From Candidatus Omnitrophota bacterium (GTDB lineage Bacteria > Omnitrophota > Gorgyraeia > Aquiviventales > JACQRC01): a stretch of DNA of 63,948 nt. A model generated the notes under the pieces. It saw only the letters and a program-made list of their open reading frames with translations, was not told where the DNA came from and searched no databases. Position numbers and translations under genes: made by a program. The stretch lies in the NCBI GenBank assembly GCA_016206665.1, contig JACQRC010000105.1, positions 1 through 63,948 of the forward strand, read 5' to 3'. Shown piece by piece: positions 11,555 through 59,751 of this stretch (the stretch's first letter is position 1; each line of letters opens with the position of its first letter).

Positions 11555-12612
11555 CCCCGACCGCCAAGCGCAGCTCGCATCGTACCATCATCAAGGCCAC
11601 ACCCACGGTGCGCCGGCCGTCTTGCACCGGCAGTCTGCGTCAGGTCGGCATCGTGGGGCTGGGCGCGTGCCTACCCCAGCGGGTCGTGACCAACGCCGAG
11701 TTGGAGCGGATGGTCAAAACCTCGGATGCGTGGATACGCAGCCGCACCGGCATCCGGGAGCGTCGCTTGATCGAGCCGGGCCAGGCGACCAGCGACCTGG
11801 CCGCGCCCGCCGCGCTGGAGGCGATCAAGGCGGCCGGCTTGCGGCCGGATGAGATCGAGTTGATCGTCACCGGCACGACGACGCCGGACACGTTGTGCCC
11901 CTCGGCCTCGTGCGTCATTCAAGACAAGGTGGGGGCCAAGCGCGCCGGCTGTTTCGACGTCAATGCCGCCTGCGCCGGCTTCGTCTACGCGCTCAGCGCC
12001 GCGCAGGGCCTGGTGGCGAGCGGCCAGTATCAGAACGCGCTCGTCATCGGGGCGGATGTCCTGTCCACCATCATCGACTGGACCGACCGCTCGACCTGCG
12101 TGCTGTTCGGCGATGGGGCGGGCGCGGCGGTCATCGCTCCGGTGGGTCGGGGTGGCATCCTGGCGTCCTATCTGGGCACGGACGGGTCGGGCGCCTGTCA
12201 TCTGCAGGTGCCGGCCGGCGGCTCACGCATCCCCGCGTCCAAACACTCCGTCGAGCAGAAGCAGCATTTTCTCAAAATGAACGGCAGCGAGGTTTTCAAG
12301 TTCGCCGTGCGCGTGATGGGGGAGGCGGCCATCGTCGTCCTCGACCGCGCCGGCCTCAAACCGGAAGACGTCGATCTCTTCATCCCGCACCAGGCCAACA
12401 TCCGCATCATCCAGGCCGCGATGGAGCGGTTGCATTTGCCCATCGAGAAGGTTTACCTCAACGTCGAGAAATACGGCAACATGTCGGCCGCCTCGACGAT
12501 CGTCGCCCTGTACGAAGCGGCGAAGGCCGGGCGCATCAAGCGCGGCGACATCGTCGTCCTCGTCGCCTTCGGTGCCGGCCTCGTGTGGGGCGCCACCGTC
12601 ATCGAATGGTGA
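11551..12612 (+). CDS. fabH: beta-ketoacyl-ACP synthase III (FabH); true start may be the GTG at 11608
   Basis: ATGA overlap with plsX; active-site DVNAACAGF, HQANIRI, GNMSAAS. Confidence 0.9.
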   Translation: MTPTAKRSSHRTIIKATPTVRRPSCTGSLRQVGIVGLGACLPQRVVTNAELERMVKTSDAWIRSRTGIRERRLIEPGQATSDLAAPAALEAIKAAGLRPDEIELIVTGTTTPDTLCPSASCVIQDKVGAKRAGCFDVNAACAGFVYALSAAQGLVASGQYQNALVIGADVLSTIIDWTDRSTCVLFGDGAGAAVIAPVGRGGILASYLGTDGSGACHLQVPAGGSRIPASKHSVEQKQHFLKMNGSEVFKFAVRVMGEAAIVVLDRAGLKPEDVDLFIPHQANIRIIQAAMERLHLPIEKVYLNVEKYGNMSAASTIVALYEAAKAGRIKRGDIVVLVAFGAGLVWGATVIEW

Positions 12613-13535
12613 AGCTCGCCTATCTCTTCCCCGGCCAGGGCGCCCAGGCCGTCGGGATGGGGAAGGCCTTCTACGACCGCTTCGCCGAAGCGCGTGACGT
12701 CTACCAGCAGGCCAACCGCCGGCTCGGCTTCGACGTCACCGCCCTCTGCTTCGAAGGCCCCCAGGAGTTGCTCACCCGCACCGATCTCTGCCAGCCGGCC
12801 ATCTTTGTGACCTCCATGGCGGCCTTTCGGGCGTGGCGGTCCGTGGCGCCTGCCGCACTGGTCCCCACGGCGGCAGCAGGCCTCAGTTTGGGGGAGTTGA
12901 CGGCATTAGCGGCGGTCGAGGCCATGACCTTCGATGAGGGGCTCTACCTCGTGCGGGCCCGCGGCGAGGCCATGGCTCAGGCCGCCCAGCAAGTGGCCGG
13001 CGCGATGCTCGCCGTCTTCGGCCTGACGCGGGAGCAGCTGCAACCGATCTGCGAGACGAGCGGCGTGGAAATCGCGAATCTCAATGCGCCGGGCCAGGTC
13101 GTGGTGTCTGGCAGGGTCGACGCGATCGTCCGTGCCGAAGCAGCCGCCAAGGCGGCCGGCGCCAAGCGGACCTTACGGCTGGACGTCGGTGGCGCCTTTC
13201 ACTGTTCCCTCATGACGCCGGCCGGCCAGCAGATGCGCTCCGCCGTAGCGAAAGTCCAGTGGCGCACGCCTCAGCTGCCGGTCGTGAGCAACGTCACGGC
13301 CCGGGCGGTGGCGGAGGCCGCCGAGATTCCCATCCATCTCGTGAACCAGTTGACCCACCCCACCCTCTGGGAAGCCTCGATGCGGCTCCTCCTCAGCCAG
13401 GGCATCTCTCAGTTTCTCGAGTTCGCACCCGGTAATGTGCTCGCCGGCTTGTGGCGACGCATCGACTCTGCCGTCACCTGCACCTCGCTCAACACCCCTG
13501 CCGACCTCGAATCCCTGACCAAGATTCTCGCCTAA
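12606..13535 (+). CDS. fabD: ACP S-malonyltransferase FabD
   Basis: Start at MVKLAYLFPGQGAQAVGMG (7-nt overlap with fabH); GLSLGELTAL active site. The upstream part of ORF 11895..13535 is a shadow of fabH. Confidence 0.92.
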   Translation: MVKLAYLFPGQGAQAVGMGKAFYDRFAEARDVYQQANRRLGFDVTALCFEGPQELLTRTDLCQPAIFVTSMAAFRAWRSVAPAALVPTAAAGLSLGELTALAAVEAMTFDEGLYLVRARGEAMAQAAQQVAGAMLAVFGLTREQLQPICETSGVEIANLNAPGQVVVSGRVDAIVRAEAAAKAAGAKRTLRLDVGGAFHCSLMTPAGQQMRSAVAKVQWRTPQLPVVSNVTARAVAEAAEIPIHLVNQLTHPTLWEASMRLLLSQGISQFLEFAPGNVLAGLWRRIDSAVTCTSLNTPADLESLTKILA

Positions 13536-43642: not shown

Positions 43643-45039
43643 AACTCACGATGTTTCGGTTGCCGCCCTGCCAGCGCTTTCTTGCTACTTTCACCAGCCT
43701 CGCCCTCCTCACCGTCACCTGCCTCCAATACACCACCCCTGCCTTCGCCGAACAATCCCGCATCCGCTACTTCCACCCCGACCACTTAGGCAGTACGACC
43801 CTCGTCACCGACGAGCAGGGCCAGGTGGTCCAGGAGGTCTCCTACAAGCCGTATGGCGAAGTCTACGCCCAAGCCGGCGCCGTCAACCTGCCCCACAAGT
43901 TCACCGGCCAGCGCCACGATGTCTCGACGGGCCTCTACTACTACAATGCGCGGTACTACGACCCGCAGTTAGGTCGGTTCATCCAGCCGGACACCGTTGT
44001 TCAGGCGCCGGCGGATCCCCAAACGCTTAATAGGTACAGTTACGCCCGCAATAATCCTGTTCGATATGTCGATCCCACCGGCTATAGCTTCTGGAGCAAG
44101 TTTTTCGGGTCGATTGCTGCGATCTTTTTCTCTGTCGTCACGGCTGGCCTTGGCAGTCTACTGTCCGCGGCCATTTCTGCGGCGGCTTTTGGAGCGTTTG
44201 ATGCAGGAATTAGCGCTTACCAGGCAGGCGCTGGTTGGAATGGGGCTTTCAAAGCTGGCGCAATTGGAGCTGCGGCGGGCTTCGCCGGAAGTCTGGCCGG
44301 TGGTTTCACGTCCAATTTTGTTGGTGGATTAACCAACTCCTTTGCAGGCGATGCCTTTGGCTCTCTAGCTTTTGGTGCCACAAGTGGAGCAGTGGGAGCT
44401 GGCTTAAGCGGCGGATCAGTCGGACGTGGGACTTTAGCAGGAGCTGCGGCAAGCATTACGGCATTCACCTTAGCTCCTCTTGGCCCTAACGCAATGTTCT
44501 TAGCCAGCAGTGCCGTTGGGGCGGCTATCAGGGGTGAGGACCCTGTTGAGGCTTTGAAGGAAGGCGCTGGCGGTGGCCTCGGGTATACGGTGGCTACGAC
44601 TGCTTATGTCCACGCTACCGCCAGCCGGGTGCCTGCCAGCGGTCAAATTGACGCGCAGCCAGGTGACCGGCTCTACTATACTCCAGATTCACCTATCGGT
44701 CTGTTCGTTGTCCTCTTGGAAGGTGGTCCGTTCTCACACGTTAACGTCTATCTGGGAGATGGCAAAGTAGCTGATAATTCTCTTGGTACCAACACGCAAG
44801 AGCGCCAGCTATCGAAGTTTGCTGGTCGACCATACGTCTTGGCTCCGGCTCTGGGAATGCCCCAACAGAGCTTGTCCGCCTTGACTGGCGATCTGGCCAA
44901 GACCCATCCTCGTTACAATCCAATTCCTACTTCGCTATGGGTCTGCTCAACTTGTACCTCGACGATGTACGGTCAAGCTGGGCTCACCGGATTGTCCGGA
45001 ATCGGACCTAACGCGCAATACCTGCTTAATGACAAGTAA
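43639..45039 (+). CDS. mini-RHS toxin 2: signal peptide + RHS core + Gly/Ala-rich linker + distinct C-terminal domain (His then Cys, possibly permuted papain-like)
   Basis: MKLTMFRLPPCQRFLATFTSLALL; core nearly identical to toxin 1; C-terminal FSHVNVYLGDGK...WVCSTCTSTMY. Confidence 0.8.
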   Translation: MKLTMFRLPPCQRFLATFTSLALLTVTCLQYTTPAFAEQSRIRYFHPDHLGSTTLVTDEQGQVVQEVSYKPYGEVYAQAGAVNLPHKFTGQRHDVSTGLYYYNARYYDPQLGRFIQPDTVVQAPADPQTLNRYSYARNNPVRYVDPTGYSFWSKFFGSIAAIFFSVVTAGLGSLLSAAISAAAFGAFDAGISAYQAGAGWNGAFKAGAIGAAAGFAGSLAGGFTSNFVGGLTNSFAGDAFGSLAFGATSGAVGAGLSGGSVGRGTLAGAAASITAFTLAPLGPNAMFLASSAVGAAIRGEDPVEALKEGAGGGLGYTVATTAYVHATASRVPASGQIDAQPGDRLYYTPDSPIGLFVVLLEGGPFSHVNVYLGDGKVADNSLGTNTQERQLSKFAGRPYVLAPALGMPQQSLSALTGDLAKTHPRYNPIPTSLWVCSTCTSTMYGQAGLTGLSGIGPNAQYLLNDK

Positions 45040-47601: not shown

Positions 47602-47964
47602 ATGAGCCGCAAGCGAGCCATTTATTACCCGGATGCCAGGGGCAAGATACCAGCCTTGTCGTTCCTACGCGGGCTGCCGCAGGACGAGCAACAGAAGGCG
47701 TACGCGTACATCAGCTACCTGGAGGAGCAGGGGGAGGCCTTGCGGCGGCCCATTGCGGAGTACCTGGGCGGCAAGCTGTACGAGCTCCGACCAAAGCAGG
47801 TTCGCATCCTCTACGCCTTTGTTGGTCGGCAGGATGTCGTCATCCTCCATGCGTTTCGGAAGAAGACGGGATCGGTCCCAACCAGCGAGCAGCGGTTGGC
47901 TCAGGCCAGACTGGCAGATTTTGTTCGGCGGCAGGGACAAGGCATGATTGCCATCACGAGGTAA
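47602..47964 (+). CDS. RelE/ParE-superfamily toxin of the Gp49/HigB-like type
   Basis: LSFLRGLP..YLEEQGEALRRPIAEYLGGKLYELRPKQVRILYAF..VVILHAFRKKT. Confidence 0.8.
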   Translation: MSRKRAIYYPDARGKIPALSFLRGLPQDEQQKAYAYISYLEEQGEALRRPIAEYLGGKLYELRPKQVRILYAFVGRQDVVILHAFRKKTGSVPTSEQRLAQARLADFVRRQGQGMIAITR

Positions 47965-47970
47965 GGACGG

Positions 47971-48282
47971 ATGAAGCGGGTCAAGGCAGTCACTCATCGA
48001 CATGTGTTGAAGCGGCTGCTAAAGCGGCAGGACTTTCGGCGCGGCTATGAGGAGGAATTAGATAAGCTCCGGCTGGTGGATGCGTTGATCGCGCTGCGGC
48101 AGCGGCAGGGTCTGACGCAAGAGGCCTTGGCCAAACGGCTCAAGGTTAGTCAACCCTTTATTGCCAAGCTCGAGCGCGCCGAGACTCACAATTTTACCCT
48201 CGATACGCTGATCAAAGTGGTCGAGGCCTTAAACGGCGAACTGGTCATCCACGTCAAACCCAAAAAACTCCTGGCAGCTTAA
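47971..48282 (+). CDS. XRE-family HTH antitoxin (HigA-like)
   Basis: LRQRQGLTQEALAKRLKVSQPFIAKLERAE. Confidence 0.8.
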   Translation: MKRVKAVTHRHVLKRLLKRQDFRRGYEEELDKLRLVDALIALRQRQGLTQEALAKRLKVSQPFIAKLERAETHNFTLDTLIKVVEALNGELVIHVKPKKLLAA

Positions 48283-48371
48283 CGCATTCACCTGCCGCTT
48301 GACAGGGACCAGGTAGTAAGAGAGAGTTATTATCGATGAGACAATCGTAAGAATATAACCGGAGCGCGTCC

Positions 48372-48581
48372 ATGACCCAGGTGACGGTCTCGTCCAAGTA
48401 TCAAGTGGTGATCCCCCGGGAGGTGCGGCGGCAGTTGCCGCTGCGCATGGGGCAGAAGCTGGCCGTCCTGGTCAAGGAGGGTGTGATCACCCTACTGCCT
48501 GACCGTCCGCTCTCGGCCTTTCGCGGGTTCCTGAAGGACATGCGGGTCGGGGCCATCCGGGATAAGCGGGATCGGGTGTGA
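48372..48581 (+). CDS. AbrB/MazE/SpoVT-family antitoxin, apparently orphan
   Basis: VTVSSKYQVVIPREVRRQL swapped-hairpin motif; no toxin ORF follows. Confidence 0.75.
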   Translation: MTQVTVSSKYQVVIPREVRRQLPLRMGQKLAVLVKEGVITLLPDRPLSAFRGFLKDMRVGAIRDKRDRV

Positions 48582-48689
48582 CCTCCCTCAAGCGGCCTTG
48601 ATTATGAAAAGCCAGGTGTTCAGTACGCTGCTTAAGAGCAGCGATGAGGCCCTGCGCTCCTAATCATGCGACGTGACACAACTGCGATG

Positions 48690-48719
48690 TTGACAAAAGG
48701 CACACAATGGGTGTACACT
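48690..48719 (+). promoter_or_regulatory. sigma70-like promoter for brnTA
   Basis: TTGACA-18 nt-TACACT, 4 nt before the ATG; GTGTACAC palindrome overlaps the -10. Confidence 0.45.
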
Positions 48720-48723
48720 TAAC

Positions 48724-49023
48724 ATGGCACGGTACCAGTGGGATCAGGCCAAAAATGAGTGGTTGTTGCGGGAGCGTGGGATTTCCTTTGATCAGGTCGT
48801 CTGGCATATCGCTGAGGGCGATCTATTGGATGTGCTCATTTCTGACAAGGCGCAGTACCAAGGGCAGAAGCAGTTTGTGGTCGCCGTGCGTGGCTACGCT
48901 TATCTTGTGCCCTTTGTTGAGGAGGGGGACGCGATTGTCTTGAAGACTATCATCCCCAGTCGCAAGCTGACCAGGCAGTACCTGCGGAAAGGAGGAGCAG
49001 GCGATGGCACGACTGCATCGTGA
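48724..49023 (+). CDS. brnT: BrnT-family (DUF497) ribonuclease toxin
   Basis: YQWDQAKNEWLLRERGISFDQVV....VVAVRGYAYLVPFVEEGDAIVLKTIIPSRK. Confidence 0.8.
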   Translation: MARYQWDQAKNEWLLRERGISFDQVVWHIAEGDLLDVLISDKAQYQGQKQFVVAVRGYAYLVPFVEEGDAIVLKTIIPSRKLTRQYLRKGGAGDGTTAS

Positions 49024-49270
49024 GGAGCGGGAGCTTCTGAGATCGGTGGAGCGCGGAGCATGGCGACCGGCCGGCAAGACGGCGCTGGGCCGGTACGTGC
49101 GTGCGGCGCGCCGCACCCTGAAGAAGAACCGTCGGGTCAACATCCGCCTGGCGCAGATGGATCTGGAGGGCCTCCAGATCAAAGCGGTGGAAGAAGGCCT
49201 GCCGTATCAGACCCTGATCTCCAGCGTCCTCCACAAGTATGTCACCGGCTCCCTGATCGCGAAGCACTAA
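49004..49270 (+). CDS. brnA: BrnA-family antitoxin
   Basis: 20-nt overlap with brnT; NIRLAQMDLEGLQIKAVEEGLPYQTLISSVLHKY. Confidence 0.8.
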   Translation: MARLHREERELLRSVERGAWRPAGKTALGRYVRAARRTLKKNRRVNIRLAQMDLEGLQIKAVEEGLPYQTLISSVLHKYVTGSLIAKH

Positions 49271-49592: not shown

Positions 49593-49814
49593 ATGAACGA
49601 CTCCATCCTGACCATCACCGAACTCCACCTCTACCTGAAGATCCCCAAGCAGACCCTCTATGCCTTGGCCCAGCAGGGGAGGATTCCGGCGGCGAAGATC
49701 GGCAAGCACTGGCGGTTCCAGAAGTCGTCCATTGACCGATGGATGCGCAGCCAGCATCGGGTCAGGGAGCATCAGCTGGCTGGGATCAAGAGTGGGAATG
49801 GGAATAACAATTAA
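49593..49814 (+). CDS. excisionase-family (MerR-like HTH_17) DNA-binding protein
   Basis: LTITELHLYLKIPKQTLYALAQQGRIPAAKIGKHWRFQKSSIDRWM. Confidence 0.8.
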   Translation: MNDSILTITELHLYLKIPKQTLYALAQQGRIPAAKIGKHWRFQKSSIDRWMRSQHRVREHQLAGIKSGNGNNN

Positions 49815-49926: not shown

Positions 49927-51174
49927 ATGAACCCCAGACGTGTCGTGATCACCGGAGTAGGAGTCATCGCCCCGAACGGCATCGGGAAGGAAGCCTTTTG
50001 GGATGCCCTCGCGCATGGCCGCTCCGGCATCAGGCGCATCGAGCCGGAGAAGTTTGATGCCAGTCTCTTTCCCACCCAGTTCGCCGGTCACTTGGACGGC
50101 TTCGACCCGACGAAATGGCTGGACTTCAAGCGGGCCAAGCGGATGGAGCGCACCTCCCACCTCGCGGTCTGCGCGGCCAAGATGGCCGTGCAGGATGCAG
50201 GGCTCGATGTCTCTAAGGAAGACTCCAGCCGGATCGGTGTCATCGTCGGCACCGCGATGGCCGGGCAAGAGTTTTTGGTGCGGGAGCACTACCGATATAT
50301 GGAACGGGGGCCGATGAAGATCAACCCCTTTACCGCGATTGCCTCGTTTCCCGATGCGCCGTCCAGCAATATTTCCATTGAACTCGGCGTCCACGGGCCG
50401 AGTTTTTCGATGGCCACGGCCTGCTCCTCGGCCTCGGACGCTGTCGGCTATGCCTTCAATGCCATCCGCAAAGGCGATCTCGACATGTTCATCATGGGCG
50501 GGGCCGAGGCGGCGGTCTTCCCTGAGAGCATGGCCGCCTTCTGCATGCTGCGGGCCCTCTCGACGCGTAACGACGCCCCGGAAAAAGCTTCCCGTCCATT
50601 CGACAAGCTGCGTGACGGATTTGTGTTGGGGGAGGGGGCAGGAATCCTCGTCCTCGAATCGCTCGATCACGCCAAGAAACGCGGCGTGCACATTTACGCG
50701 GAGCTGTTAGGCTTTGGCATGACCTGCGATGCCTACCATATGACGCAACCCGAGCCGACCGGCAAGGAAGCCGCCCGGGCGCTCCAACAGGCCCTCCAGG
50801 ATGCCAAGGTCTCTCCAGACGAGATCGACTACATCAATGCCCACGGCACCTCGACCCCGCTCAACGACAAAAATGAAACTGCCGTCATCAAACAAGTCTT
50901 CGGCCAGCGCGCCTACAAGATTCCCATCAGCGCCACCAAATCGATGATCGGCCATTTGATCGGCGCCGCCGGCTCAGTTGAGCTCATCGCCAGCCTCCTG
51001 GCCATCGAGCATCAAGTGATTCCACCGACGATTAACTACGAAGTTCCTGATCCAGAGTGCGACCTCGATTATGTCCCGAACCAGGCCCGTCCGGCCAAGA
51101 TCCGCACGGTGCTCAAGAATTCCTTTGGTTTTGGAGGGAAGAACTCCGCGTTGGTGGTTCGAAGGTACGCCTGA
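49927..51174 (+). CDS. beta-ketoacyl-ACP synthase II paralog (second KAS II in the window)
   Basis: VVITGVGVIAPNG; catalytic Cys (ATACSSASDA) and both His (DAYHMT, NAHGTST) are present. Confidence 0.88.
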   Translation: MNPRRVVITGVGVIAPNGIGKEAFWDALAHGRSGIRRIEPEKFDASLFPTQFAGHLDGFDPTKWLDFKRAKRMERTSHLAVCAAKMAVQDAGLDVSKEDSSRIGVIVGTAMAGQEFLVREHYRYMERGPMKINPFTAIASFPDAPSSNISIELGVHGPSFSMATACSSASDAVGYAFNAIRKGDLDMFIMGGAEAAVFPESMAAFCMLRALSTRNDAPEKASRPFDKLRDGFVLGEGAGILVLESLDHAKKRGVHIYAELLGFGMTCDAYHMTQPEPTGKEAARALQQALQDAKVSPDEIDYINAHGTSTPLNDKNETAVIKQVFGQRAYKIPISATKSMIGHLIGAAGSVELIASLLAIEHQVIPPTINYEVPDPECDLDYVPNQARPAKIRTVLKNSFGFGGKNSALVVRRYA

Positions 51175-51497
51175 TGACTGCTCCAACGGTGGACCAACGT
51201 CTGGCCCAGGCGATCCAAGAGCTCAAAGACTACGGGGCGCAGAAGATCATTCTGTTCGGTTCGGCAGCCCGGGGCGAGGTTGATGAGTACAGCGATCTCG
51301 ACCTCGTCGTCATTAAGCCCACGGGCCAGCGGTTTCTCGAGCGCCTCCGCGAGGTCGTGAAACGCTGCCCGGTCGCCGGTGGCGAGGATGTGCTCGTCTA
51401 TACGCCGGAAGAATGGCAGCGGATGGCCGAGCACGAGAGTCCCTTTGCCGAGGCCGTCGAGCGCGAGCGACGGGTGGTCTATGAAGCACAGCACTGA
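51174..51497 (+). CDS. MNT-type nucleotidyltransferase (antitoxin-like half of a HEPN/MNT pair)
   Basis: TGATG overlap with the KAS II stop; ILFGSAARGEVDEYSDLDLVVI (GSx10DxD). Confidence 0.8.
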   Translation: MTAPTVDQRLAQAIQELKDYGAQKIILFGSAARGEVDEYSDLDLVVIKPTGQRFLERLREVVKRCPVAGGEDVLVYTPEEWQRMAEHESPFAEAVERERRVVYEAQH

Positions 51498-51594
51498 GGT
51501 GCCCTTCGAGGAGTACACGGCGACAGAGGCCCGGGAAGCCCTCCAGATGGCGCAGCAGATCATGACGCTGGTGCAGCAGAAGGTGGGGACATGA
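51481..51594 (+). pseudogene. 37-codon remnant resembling the C-terminal end of a HEPN partner
   Basis: 17-nt overlap with the MNT gene as in intact pairs, but only MKHSTEVPFEEYTATEAREALQMAQQIMTLVQQKVGT remains; no Rx4-6H motif. Confidence 0.4.
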
Positions 51595-51639
51595 AGCTTG
51601 GCGTCGGCGGCAAGCATTCGGCGTTGGTGGTGAGGAAGT

Positions 51640-53025
51640 TTGATGGCCGATAACGTTATCTCGACAGGGCAAGATAGGAAAGTTGAGCGGCGAGCTTCAT
51701 CTCGTTATCCCTTGGCATTGCCGGTCTGCTTCGATGACCGACTTTACGGAACTACCCTGAACTTAAGCAGGGAAGGTGCGTGTGTTGCTGTGCCGAGCAA
51801 CCTGCCGTTGTTAGATACCCAGACCTTCAATTCCCTCAAGGTTAAACTATCCAACACCGAGAGAGTTTTTATTCCTGCCGTCGCCGTAAGGCACGAAAAG
51901 ACCTCGGCCAGCCGTCTGACGGTGGGGATGCGATTCCACGAGTCCGGGTACATTGATCCAGAACAGCTCGAAACTGCTTATAAAGGATTCGTCCGCATCG
52001 ACGACAAATTTGCTTCAGAAACGAAGAAGGTAAGAAGGTTCGTAGAGGAGATCAAGCTCCAATGCGATCTCTACGATCAAAGCCACCCAAAAGAGGAGGA
52101 CCGACTTGGTTATCTTAACGGAATCGAGCAAGAGTTGAGAGGAAAGTTTGATGCTGGCTTTGCCAAGGCTTGGAAGCTTTACGCTGAGCTTCCGCCCGAA
52201 GGACAACGCACACATCAATTATACTTCCAACTGATGCTCCACGACTTAGTGGAAGAGAACGTAGAGATTAACCGGCATATCTACCGCAAGCCGCTTGGCT
52301 ATGCCGGTGATTTCATCATGATGAACTATATCTACAACTATCACAATGGGGCTTACATAGGGGCGACCACGTTTGAAAGGATTGTGAACCATTACACTTG
52401 TAGCATCCCAATCTCGAAGTCCAACATCGGCAGGAAGGAATTCCTCAAGCAGCAACTCCTCTCAACAATCGACCGGTGTGAACAGGCGAACATCTTGAGT
52501 GTTGGGTCAGGACCACTCAGGGAATTGACAGAGCTTGCGCTTGAAGGAAAGCTCAGTAAGCCGATACGCTTCACCTGCGTTGATTTTGAGCAGAAGGCTG
52601 TCGAATACTCCAAGTCCGAGATCGAAACCCTTGAGCTAGCCAAGCGTGGCCTTATATCGTTTGAGTTCGTCCTCGGAAACGTCGTTGCCATCATCAGGAA
52701 CAAAAACTTCAGAGAAAAGCTGAAGAGTTACGACCTCATTTACGCTTCTGGCGTGTTCGACTATTTGAGCGACCGGCTATCATCAGCTTTGATCCATCAG
52801 CTTTACGAATCGGCAAGGGAGAAGGGCAGAGTGATCGTCTTCAACGCATCGCTTGACACGAGCAGCCATCGCGGGTATTACGAGCTGCTCGGCGAATGGA
52901 ACATGTACCACCGGACAGAATCGGAGATGCTCCGGTGGCTTCGAGAGGATCTCCGGAAAGCTGCACGCTTCGAGAAACATCCCGCTTGTCCGGACTATCT
53001 TCTCCTAGTCCTGGACAAACCGTGA
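51640..53025 (+). CDS. PilZ domain fused to a class I SAM-dependent methyltransferase of the PhcB-like type
   Basis: PilZ motifs RRASSR and NLSREG; GYAGDFIMMNYIY; SAM motif I ILSVGSGPL; DLIYASGVFDYL. Confidence 0.75.
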   Translation: MMADNVISTGQDRKVERRASSRYPLALPVCFDDRLYGTTLNLSREGACVAVPSNLPLLDTQTFNSLKVKLSNTERVFIPAVAVRHEKTSASRLTVGMRFHESGYIDPEQLETAYKGFVRIDDKFASETKKVRRFVEEIKLQCDLYDQSHPKEEDRLGYLNGIEQELRGKFDAGFAKAWKLYAELPPEGQRTHQLYFQLMLHDLVEENVEINRHIYRKPLGYAGDFIMMNYIYNYHNGAYIGATTFERIVNHYTCSIPISKSNIGRKEFLKQQLLSTIDRCEQANILSVGSGPLRELTELALEGKLSKPIRFTCVDFEQKAVEYSKSEIETLELAKRGLISFEFVLGNVVAIIRNKNFREKLKSYDLIYASGVFDYLSDRLSSALIHQLYESAREKGRVIVFNASLDTSSHRGYYELLGEWNMYHRTESEMLRWLREDLRKAARFEKHPACPDYLLLVLDKP

Positions 53026-55217
53026 CCGTTCTCAACCACTTCATTCTTTCCGCATACCTCACTTCCGCTACTACCTTCCTTCTTGGCCTGTCCGTCCTTG
53101 TCATCAAGCGTTCCTGGCAACGCTCACACGTTGTCTTCGCAGCCTATTCGTTCAACATTGCATTCTGGAGCTTCTGCGTCACGAGATTCAGCCCATTCTT
53201 TGAAGATCCAGGTCTCTTGTGGGGAAGGCTATTGCACATCGGAGCATCACTCATTCCCGTACTGTTCCTCCATTTCGTGCATGAACTGCTGTACCTTGGA
53301 GATTCCAAGTTCTCCAAATTCATGTTAGGGTCGGCCTATATCACTACGGGCGTTTTTGTTGCCTTCGATCTGTCAGGATCCCTGCTGATAACTGGCGTTA
53401 CCCACAGGAGCGAATATAGCTACCCGACGCCAGGACCCCTCTATCCACTTTTCTTTGCTTACTTCGTTTCGGGCATCCTGTTAGGCATCGGACTTCTTTT
53501 TAAAGCATTTATCAGGTCTTCTGGAGTAAGACTCAACCAGTTGAAGTACCTCCTGTTGTTCTCCTCCATTGGGTACTTGGGAGGTATGAAGCACTTCCTC
53601 ATCCTTATCGGACTTGAGCCTTTCCCGATCTATCCATACGGCACATACGCCATCCCGCTCTACGTCTTGGCGGTGATGTACGCCATCACTCGATACAGAT
53701 TGCTGGACATCAATGTTGCTATTACGCGGGCAACCGTTTTTACGGCTGTTTACGCTGCGCTTCTCGGACTACCTTTGTTTGGTGCGTTGGCATGGCAATC
53801 ACGTCTCGAGCAACTCTTTGGGACACGGTGGTGGGTCGGACTCTGGTTAGCATGTGCAGTGCTAGCTACTATAGCTCACTACGTGAACCTGTACTTTCAG
53901 CGGAGGGCTGAAGAAAGGCTATTAGCGGAGCAGCGCCAATATCAGAGGACGTTGTTGACGGCATCGGCGGGGATGACGCAGATACGGGATCTGAAGAAGT
54001 TGCTGAATGTGATTGTGCGGGTGGTGGTGAGGCAGGTGCGGTTGGTGCATGGGGGGATCTTCTTGGCGGAGAAGGAGACGGAGCGGTACATCCTGCGGGC
54101 GGAGCGGGGGGGCAAGGATGGGTTGCAGGTGGGGATGACGCTGGAGAAGTACGATCCGCTGACGAGGTTTTTGAAGCAGCGGCGGGACACGTTAGTCTAT
54201 GAAGAGTTGAAGGCGATGTTGGGGGCGGAGAGCGAGCGGTTTACGGAGGGTGGGTTTTATCAGGATATGCGGCTGGCGCTGAATCGGATGGAGCAGCTGC
54301 AAGCGAGCCTAGCGATTCCAAGCTTTGCGGATGAGCGGTTGTTAGGGTTTCTGGTGCTGGGGCAGAAGAAGTCGGGGCAGATGTACTCAACAGACGACCT
54401 TTCCGTCTTCTCGACGCTGGCGAATCAGGCGGCGCTCGCGATTGAGAATGCCATCTACTTTGAGGAGTTGAAGACGAATCAGGCGTATCTGGTGCAATCA
54501 GAAAAGTTGGCGTCGTTAGGGCAGTTGGCGAGCGGGATGGCGCATGAGATTCATAATCCGCTGGCGATTATCTCCGGGGAGTCGCAGTTGTTCCTCGAGA
54601 AGGTGAAGCTGACGGAGCTCGAGGCGCAGACGGAGCGGGAGAAGGAGTTGGCCGCGAAGATGCGCCAGACGTTAGAGAGCACCATCGAGGAGTGCAACCG
54701 GGCCTCGGACATCACGCGGCGGATTCTGAAGTTCTCGCGGCCGGGCAAGGAGGGGTTTGAGCCGGTGGACGTGGGCGCCATCATCAAGGACAGCACGACG
54801 TTAGTGGGCTATCAGGTGTCGATTCAGGATACCGAAATCATCCATAACATCCCAGCGGATCTACCGAAGGTGTCCGGCAATGTGAACCAGCTGCAGGAGG
54901 TCTTCTTGAACTTGGTGCTCAATGCCTGCCAGGCGATGGGCGGCAAGGGGCGGTTGGAGCTGAGCGCTCAGGTTCGGGGACCCACCGTCGAGGTGAAAGT
55001 CATCGACAACGGCCCCGGCATCCCTCCTGAAAAACTCTCCAAGATCTTCGACCCCTTCTACACGACGAAACAAAACGGCACCGGCCTCGGACTCTTTGTG
55101 ACCCAGCGCATCATGAAGGCCCACGGGGGCTCGCTGGCCGTCGAGAGCGCGCTGGGGCAGGGGACGACGTTTACCGTCAAACTGCCCGTCATGCAAGAGG
55201 CGACAGCAGCGACCTAA
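53022..55217 (+). CDS. sensor histidine kinase with 7TM and GAF domains (HK3), paralog of HK2
   Basis: GTGA overlap with the methyltransferase stop; ITRYRLLDI; MAHEIHNPL; DNGPGI; no heptamer insert between the N and G1 boxes. Confidence 0.88.
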   Translation: MTVLNHFILSAYLTSATTFLLGLSVLVIKRSWQRSHVVFAAYSFNIAFWSFCVTRFSPFFEDPGLLWGRLLHIGASLIPVLFLHFVHELLYLGDSKFSKFMLGSAYITTGVFVAFDLSGSLLITGVTHRSEYSYPTPGPLYPLFFAYFVSGILLGIGLLFKAFIRSSGVRLNQLKYLLLFSSIGYLGGMKHFLILIGLEPFPIYPYGTYAIPLYVLAVMYAITRYRLLDINVAITRATVFTAVYAALLGLPLFGALAWQSRLEQLFGTRWWVGLWLACAVLATIAHYVNLYFQRRAEERLLAEQRQYQRTLLTASAGMTQIRDLKKLLNVIVRVVVRQVRLVHGGIFLAEKETERYILRAERGGKDGLQVGMTLEKYDPLTRFLKQRRDTLVYEELKAMLGAESERFTEGGFYQDMRLALNRMEQLQASLAIPSFADERLLGFLVLGQKKSGQMYSTDDLSVFSTLANQAALAIENAIYFEELKTNQAYLVQSEKLASLGQLASGMAHEIHNPLAIISGESQLFLEKVKLTELEAQTEREKELAAKMRQTLESTIEECNRASDITRRILKFSRPGKEGFEPVDVGAIIKDSTTLVGYQVSIQDTEIIHNIPADLPKVSGNVNQLQEVFLNLVLNACQAMGGKGRLELSAQVRGPTVEVKVIDNGPGIPPEKLSKIFDPFYTTKQNGTGLGLFVTQRIMKAHGGSLAVESALGQGTTFTVKLPVMQEATAAT

Positions 55218-55260
55218 GCCATCAGCAGTCAGCAAGCAGCAATCAGCAAGCAGCAATCAG
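55218..55260. repeat. heptamer array CAGCAGT/CAGCAAG/CAGCAAT starting at the base after the HK3 stop
   Basis: GCCAT CAGCAGT CAGCAAG CAGCAAT CAGCAAG CAGCAAT CAG. Confidence 0.9.
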
Positions 55261-55400
55261 TGCTTCGACTCGGCCCCGCAGGGCCTCGCTCAGCACTGAC
55301 CCTGAGCGAGCGCAGCGAGTCGAACGGGTCAGCAGTCAGCAAAAAAGCCAACCGCCAAAGCACAACACGCCGCAGAGGCGCAGAACCGCAGAGCGACGGT

Positions 55401-56861
55401 ATGGGCTGGTCACAACGCAAGCGACGGCAGGTCGCTGAGCTCCACCGCCGCGCCAAGCGCAACCTGATCCGCTTTCTGGTGGGGATGGGCGTTCTGGTGT
55501 GTTGCCTCCTCCTCACAGTGATGGGCCACGAAGGCTCCACGACCGGCCCCACCCTCGATAGCCGCTTCACCTACACCTACGATGCCGTGGGCAACCGCAT
55601 CACAGCGTCAAGCAACAGGCAACAAGTGACAAGTCAAGAGACCTACACCTACGATAACCTCTACCAGCTCATGGGCGTGACCAGCCCCCAGCCCCACACC
55701 TACCAATATGACCCCATGGGTAACCGCCTCCAAGCCGACGGCACGGTCTACACGCCAACCCCCCTCAACCAGTACGCCACCGTGGGTGGGACCAACCTCA
55801 CCTACGACCTGAATGGCAACCTCAGCAATGACGGCGTCCGGAGCTACGACTATGACTTCGACAACCGCCTCACTCGGGTTACCGGCCCTGGCCTGGACGT
55901 CCGCTACGCCCACGACCCCTTTGGCCGGCTCCTCGAGCGCAACGCCAACGGCACCCGCACCAGCTACCGCTACGATGGCGACCAGATTATCGAAGAACGG
56001 AATGCCGCGAACCAAATCGTGGCCACCTACACCTACGGCCCCGGCATCGACGAACCGCTCACGATGACCCGCGGTGGGCAGACGTACTACTACTTCCAGG
56101 ACGGCCTCGGCTCCGTGACCGAACTCACGAACGCCGCCGGCGAGGTGGTGGAGAGCTACACCTACGACCCCTACGGCCAGCCGACGCCGGCCGTCTCTGC
56201 CGTGGGCAACCCGTACCGCTTTACCGGGCGCTGGTATGATGAGGCCACGGGCCTGTACCACGCCCGGGCGCGGACCTACAGCCCTACCCTGGGCCGCTTC
56301 CTGCAACGGGATCCGAGGCCTGTCGAGCCCAACCCCTACAGCTATGCCCTCAACAATCCAACCACCTTAGTAGATCTGCAGGGCAATCTGACCATCGTTC
56401 CTGGGCCGCTGCCGACGAATCTTCAAGATCCCCGCGGCATCCGAGGCCCGCACCTGCCCACAGGTCAGCTGCCTTCACCGCCCCTGCCGCCCACCGGATG
56501 GGCCCCACCTCTACCACCTCCGCCGGGACCTGACCTGCTGCCTGAACCATCTGCCGGCACCGAAGCCGGGCAGAAAGAGCGCACGGGCAAGCGGGGTCAG
56601 GCCCTATCCCCCGGTGTGGGGCAGGGATCCGGTGTCGATATGGCCAAAGGCACGAGCCCGGAGGGCAAACGGCGTCGAGGGAGTAAAAAGCAAGACATCG
56701 CAGAGATAGACGACGCTGCACAACAAGCCGGAATAGATGATCCTGAAACGCGGAGAGAATTTGGCAGGTTTGTTGAAGAAAGTAAAAAGCAAGAGGGACG
56801 TGGTGATTACTCTTTTCAAGAGCTCAGGCAAAAAGCCTCGGAGTTTCTCGGGAGAAAATAA
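55401..56861 (+). CDS. short membrane-anchored RHS-repeat toxin 3 with Pro-rich linker and small unknown C-terminal domain
   Basis: Start at MGWSQRKRRQ.. plus a TM helix; about 8 YD repeats; core YRFTGRWYDEATGLYHARARTYSPTLGRFLQRDP..NPYSYALNNPTTLVDLQGN. Confidence 0.8.
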   Translation: MGWSQRKRRQVAELHRRAKRNLIRFLVGMGVLVCCLLLTVMGHEGSTTGPTLDSRFTYTYDAVGNRITASSNRQQVTSQETYTYDNLYQLMGVTSPQPHTYQYDPMGNRLQADGTVYTPTPLNQYATVGGTNLTYDLNGNLSNDGVRSYDYDFDNRLTRVTGPGLDVRYAHDPFGRLLERNANGTRTSYRYDGDQIIEERNAANQIVATYTYGPGIDEPLTMTRGGQTYYYFQDGLGSVTELTNAAGEVVESYTYDPYGQPTPAVSAVGNPYRFTGRWYDEATGLYHARARTYSPTLGRFLQRDPRPVEPNPYSYALNNPTTLVDLQGNLTIVPGPLPTNLQDPRGIRGPHLPTGQLPSPPLPPTGWAPPLPPPPGPDLLPEPSAGTEAGQKERTGKRGQALSPGVGQGSGVDMAKGTSPEGKRRRGSKKQDIAEIDDAAQQAGIDDPETRREFGRFVEESKKQEGRGDYSFQELRQKASEFLGRK

Positions 56862-57274
56862 TGGGTAAACGACGAGCCATCGGTTATCGCGAACATTTCG
56901 CGTCGTTACGCATCTTTGGCAAAATTCCGAGTTTTGAAATCATCACGAAGCGCCTTGGTGTTCGACCAGATCATGTACATCGGAAAGGAGAGCGCCGCAG
57001 CGAATTGAGCAAGCCATACGAACACGATTCCTGGCAGGTAAAGGCTCTGGTCGCTCGGAATCGCTCACTGGAGCATCATGTGCGCTGGCTCCATCGGCGC
57101 CTCGCAAAGAAGACGCCTTACCTGAAACGGCTAGCGCAGACGCACGAGGTAGACCTCTACTGCAGCTACCACAGCAACTATGACCAGGGCCGACTCGAGT
57201 TTCCTCCAGAAGTTTTGGCCTGGTGTGGCAATCTGGGGATTCCGCTCCGGGTGTCGATTCTCGTCCAGGAGTGA
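56861..57274 (+). CDS. DUF4279-like protein, candidate immunity protein for RHS toxin 3
   Basis: ATG overlaps the toxin stop by 1 nt (TAATG); SLRIFGKIPSFEIITKRLGVRPD...LYCSYHSNYDQGRLEFPPEVL pattern. Confidence 0.6.
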   Translation: MGKRRAIGYREHFASLRIFGKIPSFEIITKRLGVRPDHVHRKGERRSELSKPYEHDSWQVKALVARNRSLEHHVRWLHRRLAKKTPYLKRLAQTHEVDLYCSYHSNYDQGRLEFPPEVLAWCGNLGIPLRVSILVQE

Positions 57275-57276
57275 AT

Positions 57277-57330
57277 ATGACCTTCACGGTGAAGCTGCCG
57301 GTGATGCAAGAGGCGGAGGCGGAGGCGTAA
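57277..57330 (+). pseudogene. remnant of the 3' end of a fourth paralogous histidine kinase
   Basis: Encodes (M)TFTVKLPVMQEAEAEA*, matching the HK3 C-terminus TFTVKLPVMQEATAAT* (55167-55217) with only synonymous changes in the first 12 codons. Confidence 0.6.
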
Positions 57331-57353
57331 GGGCAGTGGCTAGTGATTGGTGG

Positions 57354-57390
57354 GCACTAAGCACTAAGCACTAAGCACTAAGCACTAAGC
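57354..57390. repeat. perfect tandem heptamer GCACTAA x5
   Basis: Direct read. Confidence 0.95.
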
Positions 57391-57466
57391 AAAAGCTAAC
57401 CGCCAAGGCGCTAAAGACAGACCACCGAAACACCGAAGGGCACTGAAATACAGAAGAGCAAAATTC

Positions 57467-57643
57467 ATGACTGCGAAAAGACAAAGCAAGAGGAGCATCG
57501 CCCATCTCCGGCCACGGAAGAGCGATAAAACGTGGTCAGAGGATGAGCCAGAGTTCCTTCGGCTCAGGCAGCAAGAATCTGAGGCGAGACCTCTGCAGGA
57601 GTATCTGGTTTGTCGACGGACGAGAGAGGACAAACGGCCATGA
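57467..57643 (+). CDS. small basic hypothetical protein (58 aa)
   Basis: ATG-initiated ORF below the track cutoff; ATGA-coupled to the next small ORF. Weak support. Confidence 0.25.
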   Translation: MTAKRQSKRSIAHLRPRKSDKTWSEDEPEFLRLRQQESEARPLQEYLVCRRTREDKRP

Positions 57644-57789
57644 AAGTGCGTCGCGGCACCTGCGGACTCTGCAAGCCTACCAAACGGTACAAGCGTCACA
57701 ACCGTAGGCTGGAGACGTGGCTGAAGCGTCAGACGGCCGTGGACCTTCCGGTCCGCAGCGTGAAGCTCCGTGAGCACCATCATCAATAA
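57640..57789 (+). CDS. small basic hypothetical protein (49 aa) with CGLCK motif
   Basis: MKVRRGTCGLCKPTKRYKRHNRR..; coupled to the previous ORF. Weak support. Confidence 0.25.
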   Translation: MKVRRGTCGLCKPTKRYKRHNRRLETWLKRQTAVDLPVRSVKLREHHHQ

Positions 57790-57872
57790 CTGCCAAGGCG
57801 CCAAAAAGACTACGGGCATACAACCGTTGTGCTGTGGTATAATTAGAAGCAGTTGAGTTGAAAGGAATCGCC

Positions 57873-58076
57873 ATGCCAAGCAAGCCGATGCCCATTGACC
57901 TGACGAAGCTGCTCGCCCCCTATAAGGGGGAGTGGGTGGCGTTGTCGCAGGACGAACAACAGGTATTAGGGCACGGCAAGACGATCGACGAGGCGCTCGC
58001 TGGCGCGAAGAAATACGGTGAGCATCGGCCGATCATCATCAAGGCTCCCGATCAATACTCCGCCTTTCTTCTGTGA
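57873..58076 (+). CDS. DUF5678-like small protein
   Basis: AAAGGA Shine-Dalgarno; YKGEWVALSQDEQQVLGHGKTIDEALAGAKK pattern; ATGA-type overlap with the next gene. Confidence 0.6.
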   Translation: MPSKPMPIDLTKLLAPYKGEWVALSQDEQQVLGHGKTIDEALAGAKKYGEHRPIIIKAPDQYSAFLL

Positions 58077-58528
58077 GCCGTCTGCTACCCATTCCGTATA
58101 CCGAACTGCCTGTTCCTCCTTCCGAAGCCTTTCCCGATGTGCAGAAGCGTGACTATCCCGTCCTGCCAGTGGCGTTATCTTACCAGGGGAGGGTCACCGC
58201 CTTTACCTTCTTTGCGATTATCGACTCTGGCGCAGACAACTGCATTTTCCCGGCCATTGTCGGACGGGAGCTGGGGATTCCCGTAGAAGCCGGTTCCAAA
58301 CTGTTGACGACGGGTGTAGCGGGAGGTGGCATTGCCTACTTTCATCAGGTGAGGGTTCTGTTTCGTTTGGACAACGGGAACTATAATTTCGATTGCTATG
58401 CTGGCTTCATGCCGAGCCTGGACCAAGTTGGCGTTGGCCTCCTCGGCAGGCACGGCTTCTTTGACCTGTTCGAGAAAGTGGCATTTAACAATACTGCCAG
58501 GATCGTCGAACTGACCGCGCGGGATTGA
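58073..58528 (+). CDS. retropepsin-like aspartic protease
   Basis: FFAIIDSGADNCIFP (D-S-G-A active-site motif). Confidence 0.7.
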   Translation: MSRLLPIPYTELPVPPSEAFPDVQKRDYPVLPVALSYQGRVTAFTFFAIIDSGADNCIFPAIVGRELGIPVEAGSKLLTTGVAGGGIAYFHQVRVLFRLDNGNYNFDCYAGFMPSLDQVGVGLLGRHGFFDLFEKVAFNNTARIVELTARD

Positions 58529-58598
58529 CAGAACCAGGAGGGACTCTTTGCTTTTGCAGTATTTTGGTGTATACTTTAAGGTAGTCATTAACCGAGGG

Positions 58599-58629
58599 CG
58601 CTAAGGAAGCGAATCCTTAGCGTTTTATT
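58599..58629 (+). terminator. terminator-like hairpin plus T-tract abutting the next start codon
   Basis: CGCTAAGGA-AGCGAA-TCCTTAGCG then TTTTATT, followed immediately by the ATG at 58630. Confidence 0.5.
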
Positions 58630-59751
58630 ATGGCAGAGAAAAGCGGGCCGCAGACGGTGCGGTTGCTGGTCGCGGATGATGAAGTCAAGATCTCGCGGCT
58701 GTTGGAGTCCTTCTTCCGCGACCGGGGCTATCAGGTCACCGTCGCCACGAACGGCAACGAGGCGGTCGACCACATCCGCAAGCAGCGGCCCCATTTGGTC
58801 TTCCTCGACCTGCGGATGCCCGGCCTCTCGGGCATGGAGGTGTTGAAGCAGGCCCGCGAGATGGACCCGACCATGAAGGTGATCATCATCACCGCCATGG
58901 AGGACGAGGCGACCATGGAGCAGGCCCGGTCGCTGGGCGCCACCGACTACGTCATCAAGCCGTTCAGCCTCGAGTACCTCAACAACACCGTCCTCAACAA
59001 AGTCAACGCCTCCCTGTATGAAGATCTGCGCCGCTCGAACGAGGAGTTAAAGGCCTCGTACGAGCGATTGCAGAAGATCTTCCGCGGGATCACGAAGGCC
59101 TTCGCGACGGTCTTAAGCAAGGTGGACCCCCACTACACCCACGAGCACACCTCCCGGTCGGTCGAGTATGCCTCGAAGATTTTGGTCAAGCTGCGCGAGT
59201 TGGGTGTCAAGCTGGACGGGATTCCCGAGGAGCTGCTGCTCGCCGGCGTGCTGCTGCACGACGTAGGCAAGATCTTCACGCCGAAGGAGGTCCTCTTCAA
59301 GGCCGGGCCGCTGACCGAGGAGGAGTGGCAGATCATGCGCCGCCACCCGGTCGACGGGGCGGACATCCTCACGCAGATCGACGGCTTGCAGGAGATGGCG
59401 AAGATCATCCGCTCCCACCAGGAATGCTATGATGGCTCGGGCTATCCGGACGGCCTCAAGGCCGAGCAGATCCCGATCGGCGCGCGGATCGCCTCGGTGG
59501 TGGACGCGTTCGATGCGATGATCACCGACCGGCCCTACCGCAAGGGCTGCAAGATCGAGAAGGCGATCGAGGAACTGAAGCGCTGCCGGGGGACCCAGTT
59601 CGACCCGACGGTGGTGGACGCCATCATCGCCATCTACGAGGAAGGCAAGCTGCAGCGCGCCACCGAACATCCCCACCACGTCGAGCCGCATACGCTGGTC
59701 AACAATCCCGCCAGTCAGGCGGCGCCGGCGCCCCAAGCGAAGAAAACCTAA
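58630..59751 (+). CDS. response regulator with HD-GYP c-di-GMP phosphodiesterase domain (RpfG-like)
   Basis: Receiver LLVADDE..VFLDLRMP..KPF; HD-GYP LLHDVGK, HHE.YDGSGYPDGL. Confidence 0.88.
   Translation: MAEKSGPQTVRLLVADDEVKISRLLESFFRDRGYQVTVATNGNEAVDHIRKQRPHLVFLDLRMPGLSGMEVLKQAREMDPTMKVIIITAMEDEATMEQARSLGATDYVIKPFSLEYLNNTVLNKVNASLYEDLRRSNEELKASYERLQKIFRGITKAFATVLSKVDPHYTHEHTSRSVEYASKILVKLRELGVKLDGIPEELLLAGVLLHDVGKIFTPKEVLFKAGPLTEEEWQIMRRHPVDGADILTQIDGLQEMAKIIRSHQECYDGSGYPDGLKAEQIPIGARIASVVDAFDAMITDRPYRKGCKIEKAIEELKRCRGTQFDPTVVDAIIAIYEEGKLQRATEHPHHVEPHTLVNNPASQAAPAPQAKKT

Follow-up and report, generated by a model that had tools for sequence, protein, structure and literature searches.

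Phc-type quorum sensing is regarded as a speciality of Ralstonia and Cupriavidus. The Rpf system of Xanthomonas, whose signal is the diffusible signal factor (DSF), consists of the synthase RpfF, the sensor kinase RpfC and RpfG, in which a receiver (REC) domain is joined to an HD-GYP domain. The methyltransferase PhcB is needed for synthesis of the 3-hydroxymyristic and 3-hydroxypalmitic acid methyl esters of the Phc system (3-OH-MAME/PAME; PMC6989110, PMC8578825), and RpfC-RpfF control has been described (PMC6989110). Here a locus with likenesses to both systems was analysed in a 63,948-nucleotide stretch of DNA from a Candidatus Omnitrophota bacterium, referred to below as the window. It encodes a 460-residue protein (51643-53025), in which a PilZ domain precedes an S-adenosylmethionine (SAM) methyltransferase of the PhcB superfamily, followed by a 731-residue sensor histidine kinase (53022-55217); both genes are on the plus strand, as is every feature described between 49593 and 62191. 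On balance, we favour the view that 51643-55217 is the core of a synthase-receptor signalling cassette with PilZ input and HD-GYP output. The gene pair is part of a widespread, undescribed family, whose role is probably to connect a lipid-like signal with cyclic di-GMP (c-di-GMP). A first-pass annotation of the window had proposed such a module, and the parts that it named, a second β-ketoacyl-ACP synthase II (KAS II; ACP, acyl carrier protein), the PilZ::methyltransferase, the kinase, an RHS cassette and a receiver::HD-GYP regulator, all lie where it had placed them or close by.

The 51643-53025 protein contains the segment GYAGDFIMMNYIY as well as the motifs RRASSR and NLSREG. Pfam models of class I methyltransferases match it below their cut-offs, and NCBIfam has no model for the methyltransferase. 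An AlphaFold model (predicted local distance difference test score, pLDDT, 91.9) has a β-barrel with a helix, a helical cap and a Rossmann domain, and the domain spans are PilZ at residues ~13-116, cap at 121-278 and Rossmann methyltransferase at 282-458. Among the solved structures nearest to the model, nearly all are O- or C-methyltransferases of small molecules. By sequence, neither the protein nor the family profile picked up a solved relative in the PDB; the matches that did appear, to coiled coils and bromodomains, were spurious.

The PhcB reference was reached by tblastn of plasmids, which led to a Paraburkholderia locus with the order methyltransferase, kinase, receiver, receiver. In a scan of species genomes its methyltransferase proved orthologous to the PhcB proteins of Cupriavidus necator and of several Ralstonia species, with 63-70% identity along the whole sequence. 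R. solanacearum itself is not among the 80 loci kept; in Ralstonia sp. R-29 (L087) the methyltransferase gene is the first of a phcB-phcS-phcR-phcQ-type operon. In addition, 80 metagenome loci were retrieved and annotated with profiles made from the genes already identified. When the window protein was compared with PhcB by hhalign, its residues 112-460 aligned with residues 113-463 (probability 100, E 6.6e-46, 341 columns), and BLASTP against the R-29 orthologue gave 25% identity over 254 residues (E 2e-24). The PLGYAGD motif is invariant in both clades (P217, G219, Y220, G222 and D223 being among the invariant residues), as are 12 further residues. By alignment, then, the methyltransferase is a member of the PhcB superfamily, its cap and Rossmann core being homologous end to end over ~350 residues. 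The whole-core alignment and the invariant motif mean that the first-pass annotation, which had pointed to PhcB-type enzymes from the motif segment, was right at the level of the superfamily.

It was not right at the level of orthology. In a neighbour-joining tree of the methyltransferase cores one split sorts the two groups by kinase type without error; mean identity between the groups is 0.24, against 0.42 and 0.40 inside them, and the best match of the window protein inside the PhcB clade reaches 0.30. The possibility that the protein is a PhcB orthologue was ruled out by this tree, which puts it in a separate, sister clade at ~24% identity, and by its partner, a HisKA_7TM+GAF kinase (7TM, seven-transmembrane) instead of one of the PhcS type.

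The superfamily is large. A database search gave 98 relatives with a common core of ~340 residues and N-termini that are PilZ, REC+PilZ, REC, helix-turn-helix (HTH) or absent. In a profile search of 1.84 billion representative proteins, 961 clusters (50% identity) reached E <= 1e-30 and 3427 reached E <= 1e-10. Where relatives are named, they are from Omnitrophota, Nitrospirota, Planctomycetota and Deltaproteobacteria, and some members of the clade carry the KEGG name phcB in IMG, by automated annotation only.

The N-terminal domain matches the Pfam PilZ model (PF07238) with 27.6 bits against a gathering score of 22.5. Both motifs of c-di-GMP-binding PilZ domains are present, R17-A-S-S-R21 and N40-L-S-R-E-G45, and both are kept in 52 of the 64 PilZ-bearing relatives, which argues that they are under selection in the family. 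In the model, strands run across residues 27-98 and a helix spans 106-116, with pLDDT >90 over most of the domain. Profile, motifs and the modelled barrel and helix all point to a canonical PF07238 PilZ domain, predicted to bind c-di-GMP, in line with what had been read from the motifs. Its position is occupied in relatives by PilZ, REC+PilZ, REC or nothing, and this variety marks the slot as a position for regulatory input. A canonical PilZ domain (RxxxR, D/NxSxxG) is likewise fused to, or controls, a biosynthetic enzyme in cellulose synthase (BcsA) and in alginate synthesis (Alg44) (10.1101/814665), whereas the window enzyme is a soluble small-molecule methyltransferase with its PilZ domain at the N-terminus. 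The PilZ::methyltransferase architecture is not described in the PilZ survey.

The N-terminus of PhcB itself was also modelled. The first ~100 residues of PhcB-type proteins, which are conserved (residues 1-125 of P0091; also L015, L087 and other orthologues) gave a six-stranded barrel and a helix with pLDDT 79.8. The best structural matches of this model in the PDB were almost exclusively PilZ domains (YcgR, MrkH, PP4397, VCA0042, BcsA, Alg44, MotI), and hhalign against the PilZ domain of the window's clade gave a probability of 82.6. These predicted PilZ-fold domains lack the c-di-GMP motifs, unlike the PilZ domain of the window protein, which keeps them. The architecture is not listed in the PilZ survey. 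The substitution R22C in R. solanacearum PhcB lowers signal output and lies outside the methyltransferase domain (PMC6989110). Residue R22 maps to the predicted PilZ-fold domain and is invariant in alignment A2. The predicted fold may suggest why N-terminal mutations in PhcB alter signal output.

The methyltransferase gene starts at ATG 51643, with an in-frame TTG at 51640, and its TGA stop overlaps the GTG start of the kinase gene (GTGA at 53022-53025), a start that is backed by the N-terminus of a homologue. A scan for promoters and terminators around the genes found sites no more frequently than expected by chance. In the kinase, Pfam models for HisKA_7TM (53022-~53716), GAF (~53988-54449), HisKA (~54516-54746) and HATPase_c (~54879-55190) all score above their cut-offs, and the sequence has a recognisable H-box (MAHEIHNPL) and N/G boxes (DNGPGI, GTGLGL). 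Among NCBIfam models the best architecture match was PrsK, the kinase of XrtA/PEP-CTERM systems (TIGR02916), which has the same layout of multiple transmembrane segments followed by GAF, HisKA and HATPase domains; membership was rejected, as the kinase scores 123.5 bits, far under the cut-off of 300, and no PEP-CTERM or exosortase genes are found near it.

The order of synthase gene followed by sensor kinase gene was expected to mirror phcB-phcS, and it does: it is conserved across both the 7TM-linked clade and PhcB proper, with receiver proteins following the membrane kinase as in Phc systems. In the 80 metagenome loci, the gene after the methyltransferase encodes a 7TM(-GAF) kinase in 35 cases and a PhcS-type kinase, often as a fusion with PhcR, in 37; another 18 methyltransferase genes have no kinase assignment and lie mostly at contig ends. 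Linkage to the kinase is kept in 35/35 of the genes assigned to the 7TM-linked clade. As a counterpart of the PhcS sensor the window kinase failed, however, since only its catalytic core aligns with PhcS (31% over 242 residues) and its own sensor part (7TM+GAF) is unrelated. Output differs too, the 7TM-linked clade having stand-alone REC or REC-HD-GYP proteins rather than PhcR, PhcQ and PhcA.

The methyltransferase and the 7TM domain have a common history that the rest of the kinase does not have. A blastn search gave a contiguous 2053-bp match (77.5%) to locus L001 at 51667-53716, stopping at 53716. The GC content of this block is 50%; the window as a whole has 61.7% and the remainder of the kinase gene 58%. 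At the protein level, kinase residues 1-~230 are 65-82% identical to the L001 kinase and the remainder 25-60%. The methyltransferase gene and the first half of the kinase gene had been described as AT-shifted, in keeping with acquisition as a unit. An imported unit is indeed seen, and it is discrete and sharply bounded, but it comprises the methyltransferase and the 7TM part only and not, loosely, half of the kinase.

The same pattern was found in relatives. Across 22 loci, methyltransferase identity correlated with 7TM identity with a Spearman coefficient of 0.83 (Mantel p <= 0.001); the corresponding values were 0.27 for the GAF domain and 0.19 for the kinase core. At least four independent pairs of loci have the methyltransferase and the 7TM domain in common but not the cytoplasmic half of the kinase, and the breakpoints recur at the 7TM/GAF junction. 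This is the pattern that a signal-receptor specificity pair would produce.

Third-position GC values in the window fall into layers: 0.85-0.91 for the REC-HD-GYP gene, fabG, fabF and plsX; ~0.75 for KAS II, the C-terminal part of the kinase and a paralogous kinase; and ~0.6 for the methyltransferase and 7TM block. These three layers suggest successive acquisitions. Elsewhere, some contigs (L099, L010 and L119) have two or three cassettes of the methyltransferase-kinase family, in tandem or a few kilobases apart; L099 has three methyltransferase genes and L010 two kinase-REC sets. Multiple cassettes on a contig suggest several parallel channels in one organism.

The receiver::HD-GYP response regulator (58630-59751; Pfam Response_reg and HD_5, RpfG-type), in which the HD and GYP motifs are visible, lies 3.4 kb past the kinase. 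Along its whole length it shares 45% identity with the REC-HD-GYP protein encoded directly 3' of the kinase in L097, and REC-HD-GYP, or REC then HD-GYP, is found in that position in L097, L112, the P0061 locus and the P0366 locus. The intervening material (55260-58600) consists of an RHS C-terminal fragment (55260-56861), a DUF4279 gene (56861-57274) and small open reading frames to ~58600. This RHS/DUF4279 stretch is absent between kinase and REC-HD-GYP in L097 and the P0366 locus. As the regulator adjoins the kinase in these uninterrupted relatives, the RHS cassette of the window has been inserted, which is how the first-pass annotation had seen it. From this gene order, the receiver::HD-GYP protein is the probable output of the kinase.

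KAS II (49927-51174) scores 568 bits with the fabF model TIGR03150 (cut-off 494), its Cys/His/His motifs are visible (ATACSS, NAHGTS, IGHLIG), and it is 53% identical to the canonical fabF product of the window, making it a second copy. The canonical genes, fabG (59837-60586), acpP (60607-60861) and fabF (60953-62191), all match NCBIfam equivalog models. All of the best-matching named relatives of KAS II (70-73% identity) are FabF proteins of Candidatus Omnitrophota. A catalytically intact second KAS II upstream of the methyltransferase had been taken as part of the module. The gene is there and its catalytic motifs are intact, but it is not directly upstream, an MNT-type nucleotidyltransferase gene, a HEPN fragment and a copy of the KAS end lying between. 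Nor does the linkage hold in relatives: it is absent in all 9 loci around the closest sequence relatives of the methyltransferase, those at 77-80% identity having no KAS upstream, and is seen only in the local scaffold of the lineage and in the distant locus L109. KAS II resembles an ordinary enzyme of FabF type that has been recruited to this position.

That scaffold can be followed in two relatives. The closest relatives of KAS II (75%) keep the same neighbourhood as the window; the order in the P0366 locus, which surrounds a KAS II homologue (ENA ERZ27297570), is HTH_17, KAS II, a 702-residue protein, 7TM-GAF kinase, REC-HD-GYP, fabG, acpP, fabF. The 702-residue protein occupies the slot of the PilZ-methyltransferase and has SRPBCC (Polyketide_cyc), LuxD-like Acyl_transf_2 and methyltransferase domains; it may represent an alternative route to an acyl methyl ester. 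In L176 the order is HTH-cupin, REC, 7TM kinase, HTH_17, KAS II, MNT, HEPN, MNT, HepT, a 31-codon KAS-end remnant and 7TM kinase. The HTH_17 gene of the window (excisionase-type; 49593-49814), 5' of KAS II, is 64% identical to the gene at the same position in L176. These gene orders show a scaffold conserved in the lineage with a variable synthase slot.

Lipid-type genes occur in related cassettes. L109 has a tight operon of REC, KAS, ACP, 4HBT thioesterase, PilZ-methyltransferase and kinase; in L097 a thioesterase gene lies just 5' of the methyltransferase gene, and L001 and L012 have an ACP gene in the cassette. Other related loci contain FadL-type channels, ICMT/PEMT methyltransferases and GMC or 3-beta-HSD oxidoreductases. 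FadL-type channels are found near both clades, with FadL genes in 9/37 of the PhcB-type loci. Searching with a thioesterase profile made from the L097 and L109 sequences brought up no other members. Together with the known role of PhcB, these genes point to an acyl-ACP-derived acid that would be released and O-methylated.

The following circuit is proposed. The methyltransferase would most likely take a fatty-acid-derived carboxylate out of the acyl-ACP pool and methylate it to give a hydrophobic ester, and its N-terminal PilZ domain would make this activity dependent on c-di-GMP. The 7TM domain of the translationally coupled kinase would most likely recognise the product in the membrane, and the kinase would probably phosphorylate the receiver::HD-GYP protein, a putative c-di-GMP phosphodiesterase. 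Perception of the signal would then lower c-di-GMP and so feed back on the synthase through PilZ. In the lineage scaffold of HTH_17, KAS II, variable synthase slot, 7TM-GAF kinase, REC-HD-GYP and fabG-acpP-fabF, the methyltransferase and its matching 7TM domain were imported into the slot as one block, with the toxin-antitoxin genes inserted upstream and the RHS cassette downstream. The analysis demonstrates homology, domain content, synteny, conservation of motifs and the mosaic structure; the substrate, the product, the binding of c-di-GMP and the sign of its effect, what the 7TM domain recognises and phosphotransfer from the kinase to HD-GYP are inferred.

With Rpf/DSF the proposed circuit would have in common, as judged on the window's side from its genes, a fatty-acid-derived signal, a membrane kinase and a REC-HD-GYP c-di-GMP phosphodiesterase. 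Control of the synthase by a receiver domain in Rpf may also be compared with the REC::methyltransferase fusions in the window family. The synthases differ, however, being a methyltransferase here and a crotonase-family enzyme in Rpf, as do the kinase architectures, and nothing in Rpf corresponds to the feedback of c-di-GMP on the synthase, by way of PilZ, that is proposed here.

PhcB thus becomes one branch of a superfamily in which a membrane kinase accompanies nearly every member. In the branch of the window the synthase is fused to a predicted c-di-GMP receptor and the kinase appears sometimes to be wired to a c-di-GMP phosphodiesterase. Were this confirmed, intracellular c-di-GMP would be connected directly, at the molecular level, with production of an extracellular lipid signal. 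We know of no ligands for the HisKA_7TM kinase family, and the analysis yields pairs of synthase and 7TM sensor that can be tested for these kinases.

Several points weigh against the proposed cassette. The correlation between methyltransferase and 7TM domain is partly expected from physical adjacency alone. The methyltransferases of L012 and L013 are 77-81% identical to the window protein, yet their 7TM domain differs, which can be explained only by invoking the extra ICMT/PEMT gene that both loci carry. With ~24% identity between the clade and PhcB the substrate could differ entirely. The second PilZ motif is lost in 12/64 PilZ domains of the family, and KAS II resembles an ordinary Omnitrophota FabF and is missing from most cassettes. 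On the output side, only a minority of loci have HD-GYP after the kinase and most have stand-alone REC proteins, and the HD-GYP receiver is no closer to these cassette receivers than to unrelated ones, all pairs showing a generic 29-38% identity. The window has no cassette-type stand-alone REC: when the stand-alone REC, ACP, ICMT and upstream REC-like genes of the cassette were sought in it, only the housekeeping acpP and unrelated receivers were found.

A bolder reading, offered tentatively and with more doubt than assent, takes the slot to be a polymorphic 'pherotype' slot within a conserved scaffold of KAS II, cytoplasmic part of the kinase, REC-HD-GYP and fab genes. The synthase and its matching 7TM domain would be replaced jointly by recombination, the PilZ domain would act as a c-di-GMP switch and the receptor would drive a c-di-GMP phosphodiesterase; Ralstonia PhcB would descend from c-di-GMP-gated enzymes, its PilZ-fold domain being vestigial. 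Comparable joint replacement of signal and receptor occurs in agr- and com-type quorum-sensing loci. If true, this reading would join a second messenger to a diffusible lipid signal in a closed loop of a kind not previously described.

The nearest competitor to a signalling cassette is that the methyltransferase is a regulated enzyme that modifies a lipid or metabolite and so alters a component of the membrane or envelope, and that the 7TM-GAF kinase senses the state of the membrane and controls the same process. The accessory genes of related loci fit this idea, as they encode lipid enzymes and channels (ICMT/PEMT, GMC oxidoreductase, FadL, ACP); several of the loci adjoin lipid A or fab genes, and no diffusible product is known for the 7TM-linked clade. 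The sole characterised relative, PhcB, nevertheless makes a secreted signal, and the joint exchange of methyltransferase and sensor domain, without the rest of the kinase, is typical of signal-receptor pairs and unexpected for a housekeeping function. We consider lipid modification unlikely.

The insertions raise another alternative, that they have removed an upstream partner and the stand-alone receiver and that the two intact genes are the decaying remnant of a circuit. Upstream of the methyltransferase, a decayed MNT/HEPN toxin-antitoxin insertion (51174-51594) contains an intact MNT gene (51174-51497; PF01909 match, 60% identical to an L176 MNT gene) and a HEPN C-terminal fragment (51499-51594) matching residues 105-135 of the L176 HEPN protein. 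It is followed by a diverged remnant of a KAS 3' end (51598-51654, ending …GVGGKHSALVVRKFDGR before its stop), which overlaps the methyltransferase start. A 34-nt direct repeat (51125-51158 and 51598-51631, 76% identity) identifies this remnant as a copy of the 3' end of KAS II, and the three occurrences of the signature GGK.SALVV in a six-frame translation are the two KAS genes and the remnant. This toxin-antitoxin debris and duplicated KAS end, the RHS insertion downstream, the mosaic kinase and the lack in the window of homologues of the cassette REC, ACP, ICMT and upstream REC-like genes would all be consistent with decay. Against it, both reading frames are intact with all catalytic motifs, the stop and start codons of the two genes still overlap, the end of the imported block coincides with a domain boundary and leaves the kinase in frame, and the REC-HD-GYP gene is intact 3.4 kb downstream. 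A decaying remnant therefore seems to us a still poorer explanation than lipid modification.

That the protein is instead a protein methyltransferase acting on the kinase or receiver, a CheR-like adaptation enzyme under c-di-GMP control, is highly improbable: the order methyltransferase, kinase, receiver is loosely like that of chemosensory clusters and the PilZ protein MapZ controls the methyltransferase CheR (10.1101/814665), but no CheR-family model in Pfam or NCBIfam matched, the neighbours in structure act on small molecules, homology to PhcB extends from one end of the core to the other and the kinases have no methyl-accepting domains.

The duplicated KAS end was also considered as a fresh target-site duplication; this was ruled out by its 76% identity and by the same arrangement in L176, and the toxin-antitoxin insertion at the KAS 3' end is judged to be old. 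Toxin-antitoxin cassettes (MNT/HEPN and MNT/HepT) are stacked at the KAS II 3' end in two related genomes (51125-51654 in the window and 5892-7660 in L176), each leaving a diverged KAS end. The KAS II 3' end looks like a site-specific insertion hot spot. Further 5' of KAS II, at 47602-49270, are paired small open reading frames which resemble, in sequence appearance alone, toxin-antitoxin genes (HigB/HigA-like, AbrB-type antitoxin and BrnT/BrnA-like).

The wider surroundings are similarly rich in insertions. The fatty-acid synthesis operon is split, with plsX, fabH and fabD at 10526-13535 and fabG, acpP and fabF at 59837-62191; ~46 kb of variable, insertion-rich DNA separates the halves, and the signalling module sits within it. 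This region includes an SpvB/TcdB/RHS toxin gene of 2544 codons on the minus strand (25190-32824) and three orphan RHS C-terminal fragments on the plus strand (within 41742-45039 and 55260-57274); the DUF4279 gene after the last of these is a possible immunity gene. Two minus-strand genes of the region, at 24060-24848 and 34060-35238, encode an IS200-like Y1 transposase and a protein with a 23S rRNA-intervening-sequence protein domain. Finally, 36173-41209 contains genes for an HTH-cupin regulator, a REC protein, a 7TM kinase (546 residues) and a second 7TM-GAF kinase (731 residues), without a methyltransferase gene. The first three of these genes are syntenic with L176, and the second 7TM-GAF kinase is 36% identical to the kinase of the module.

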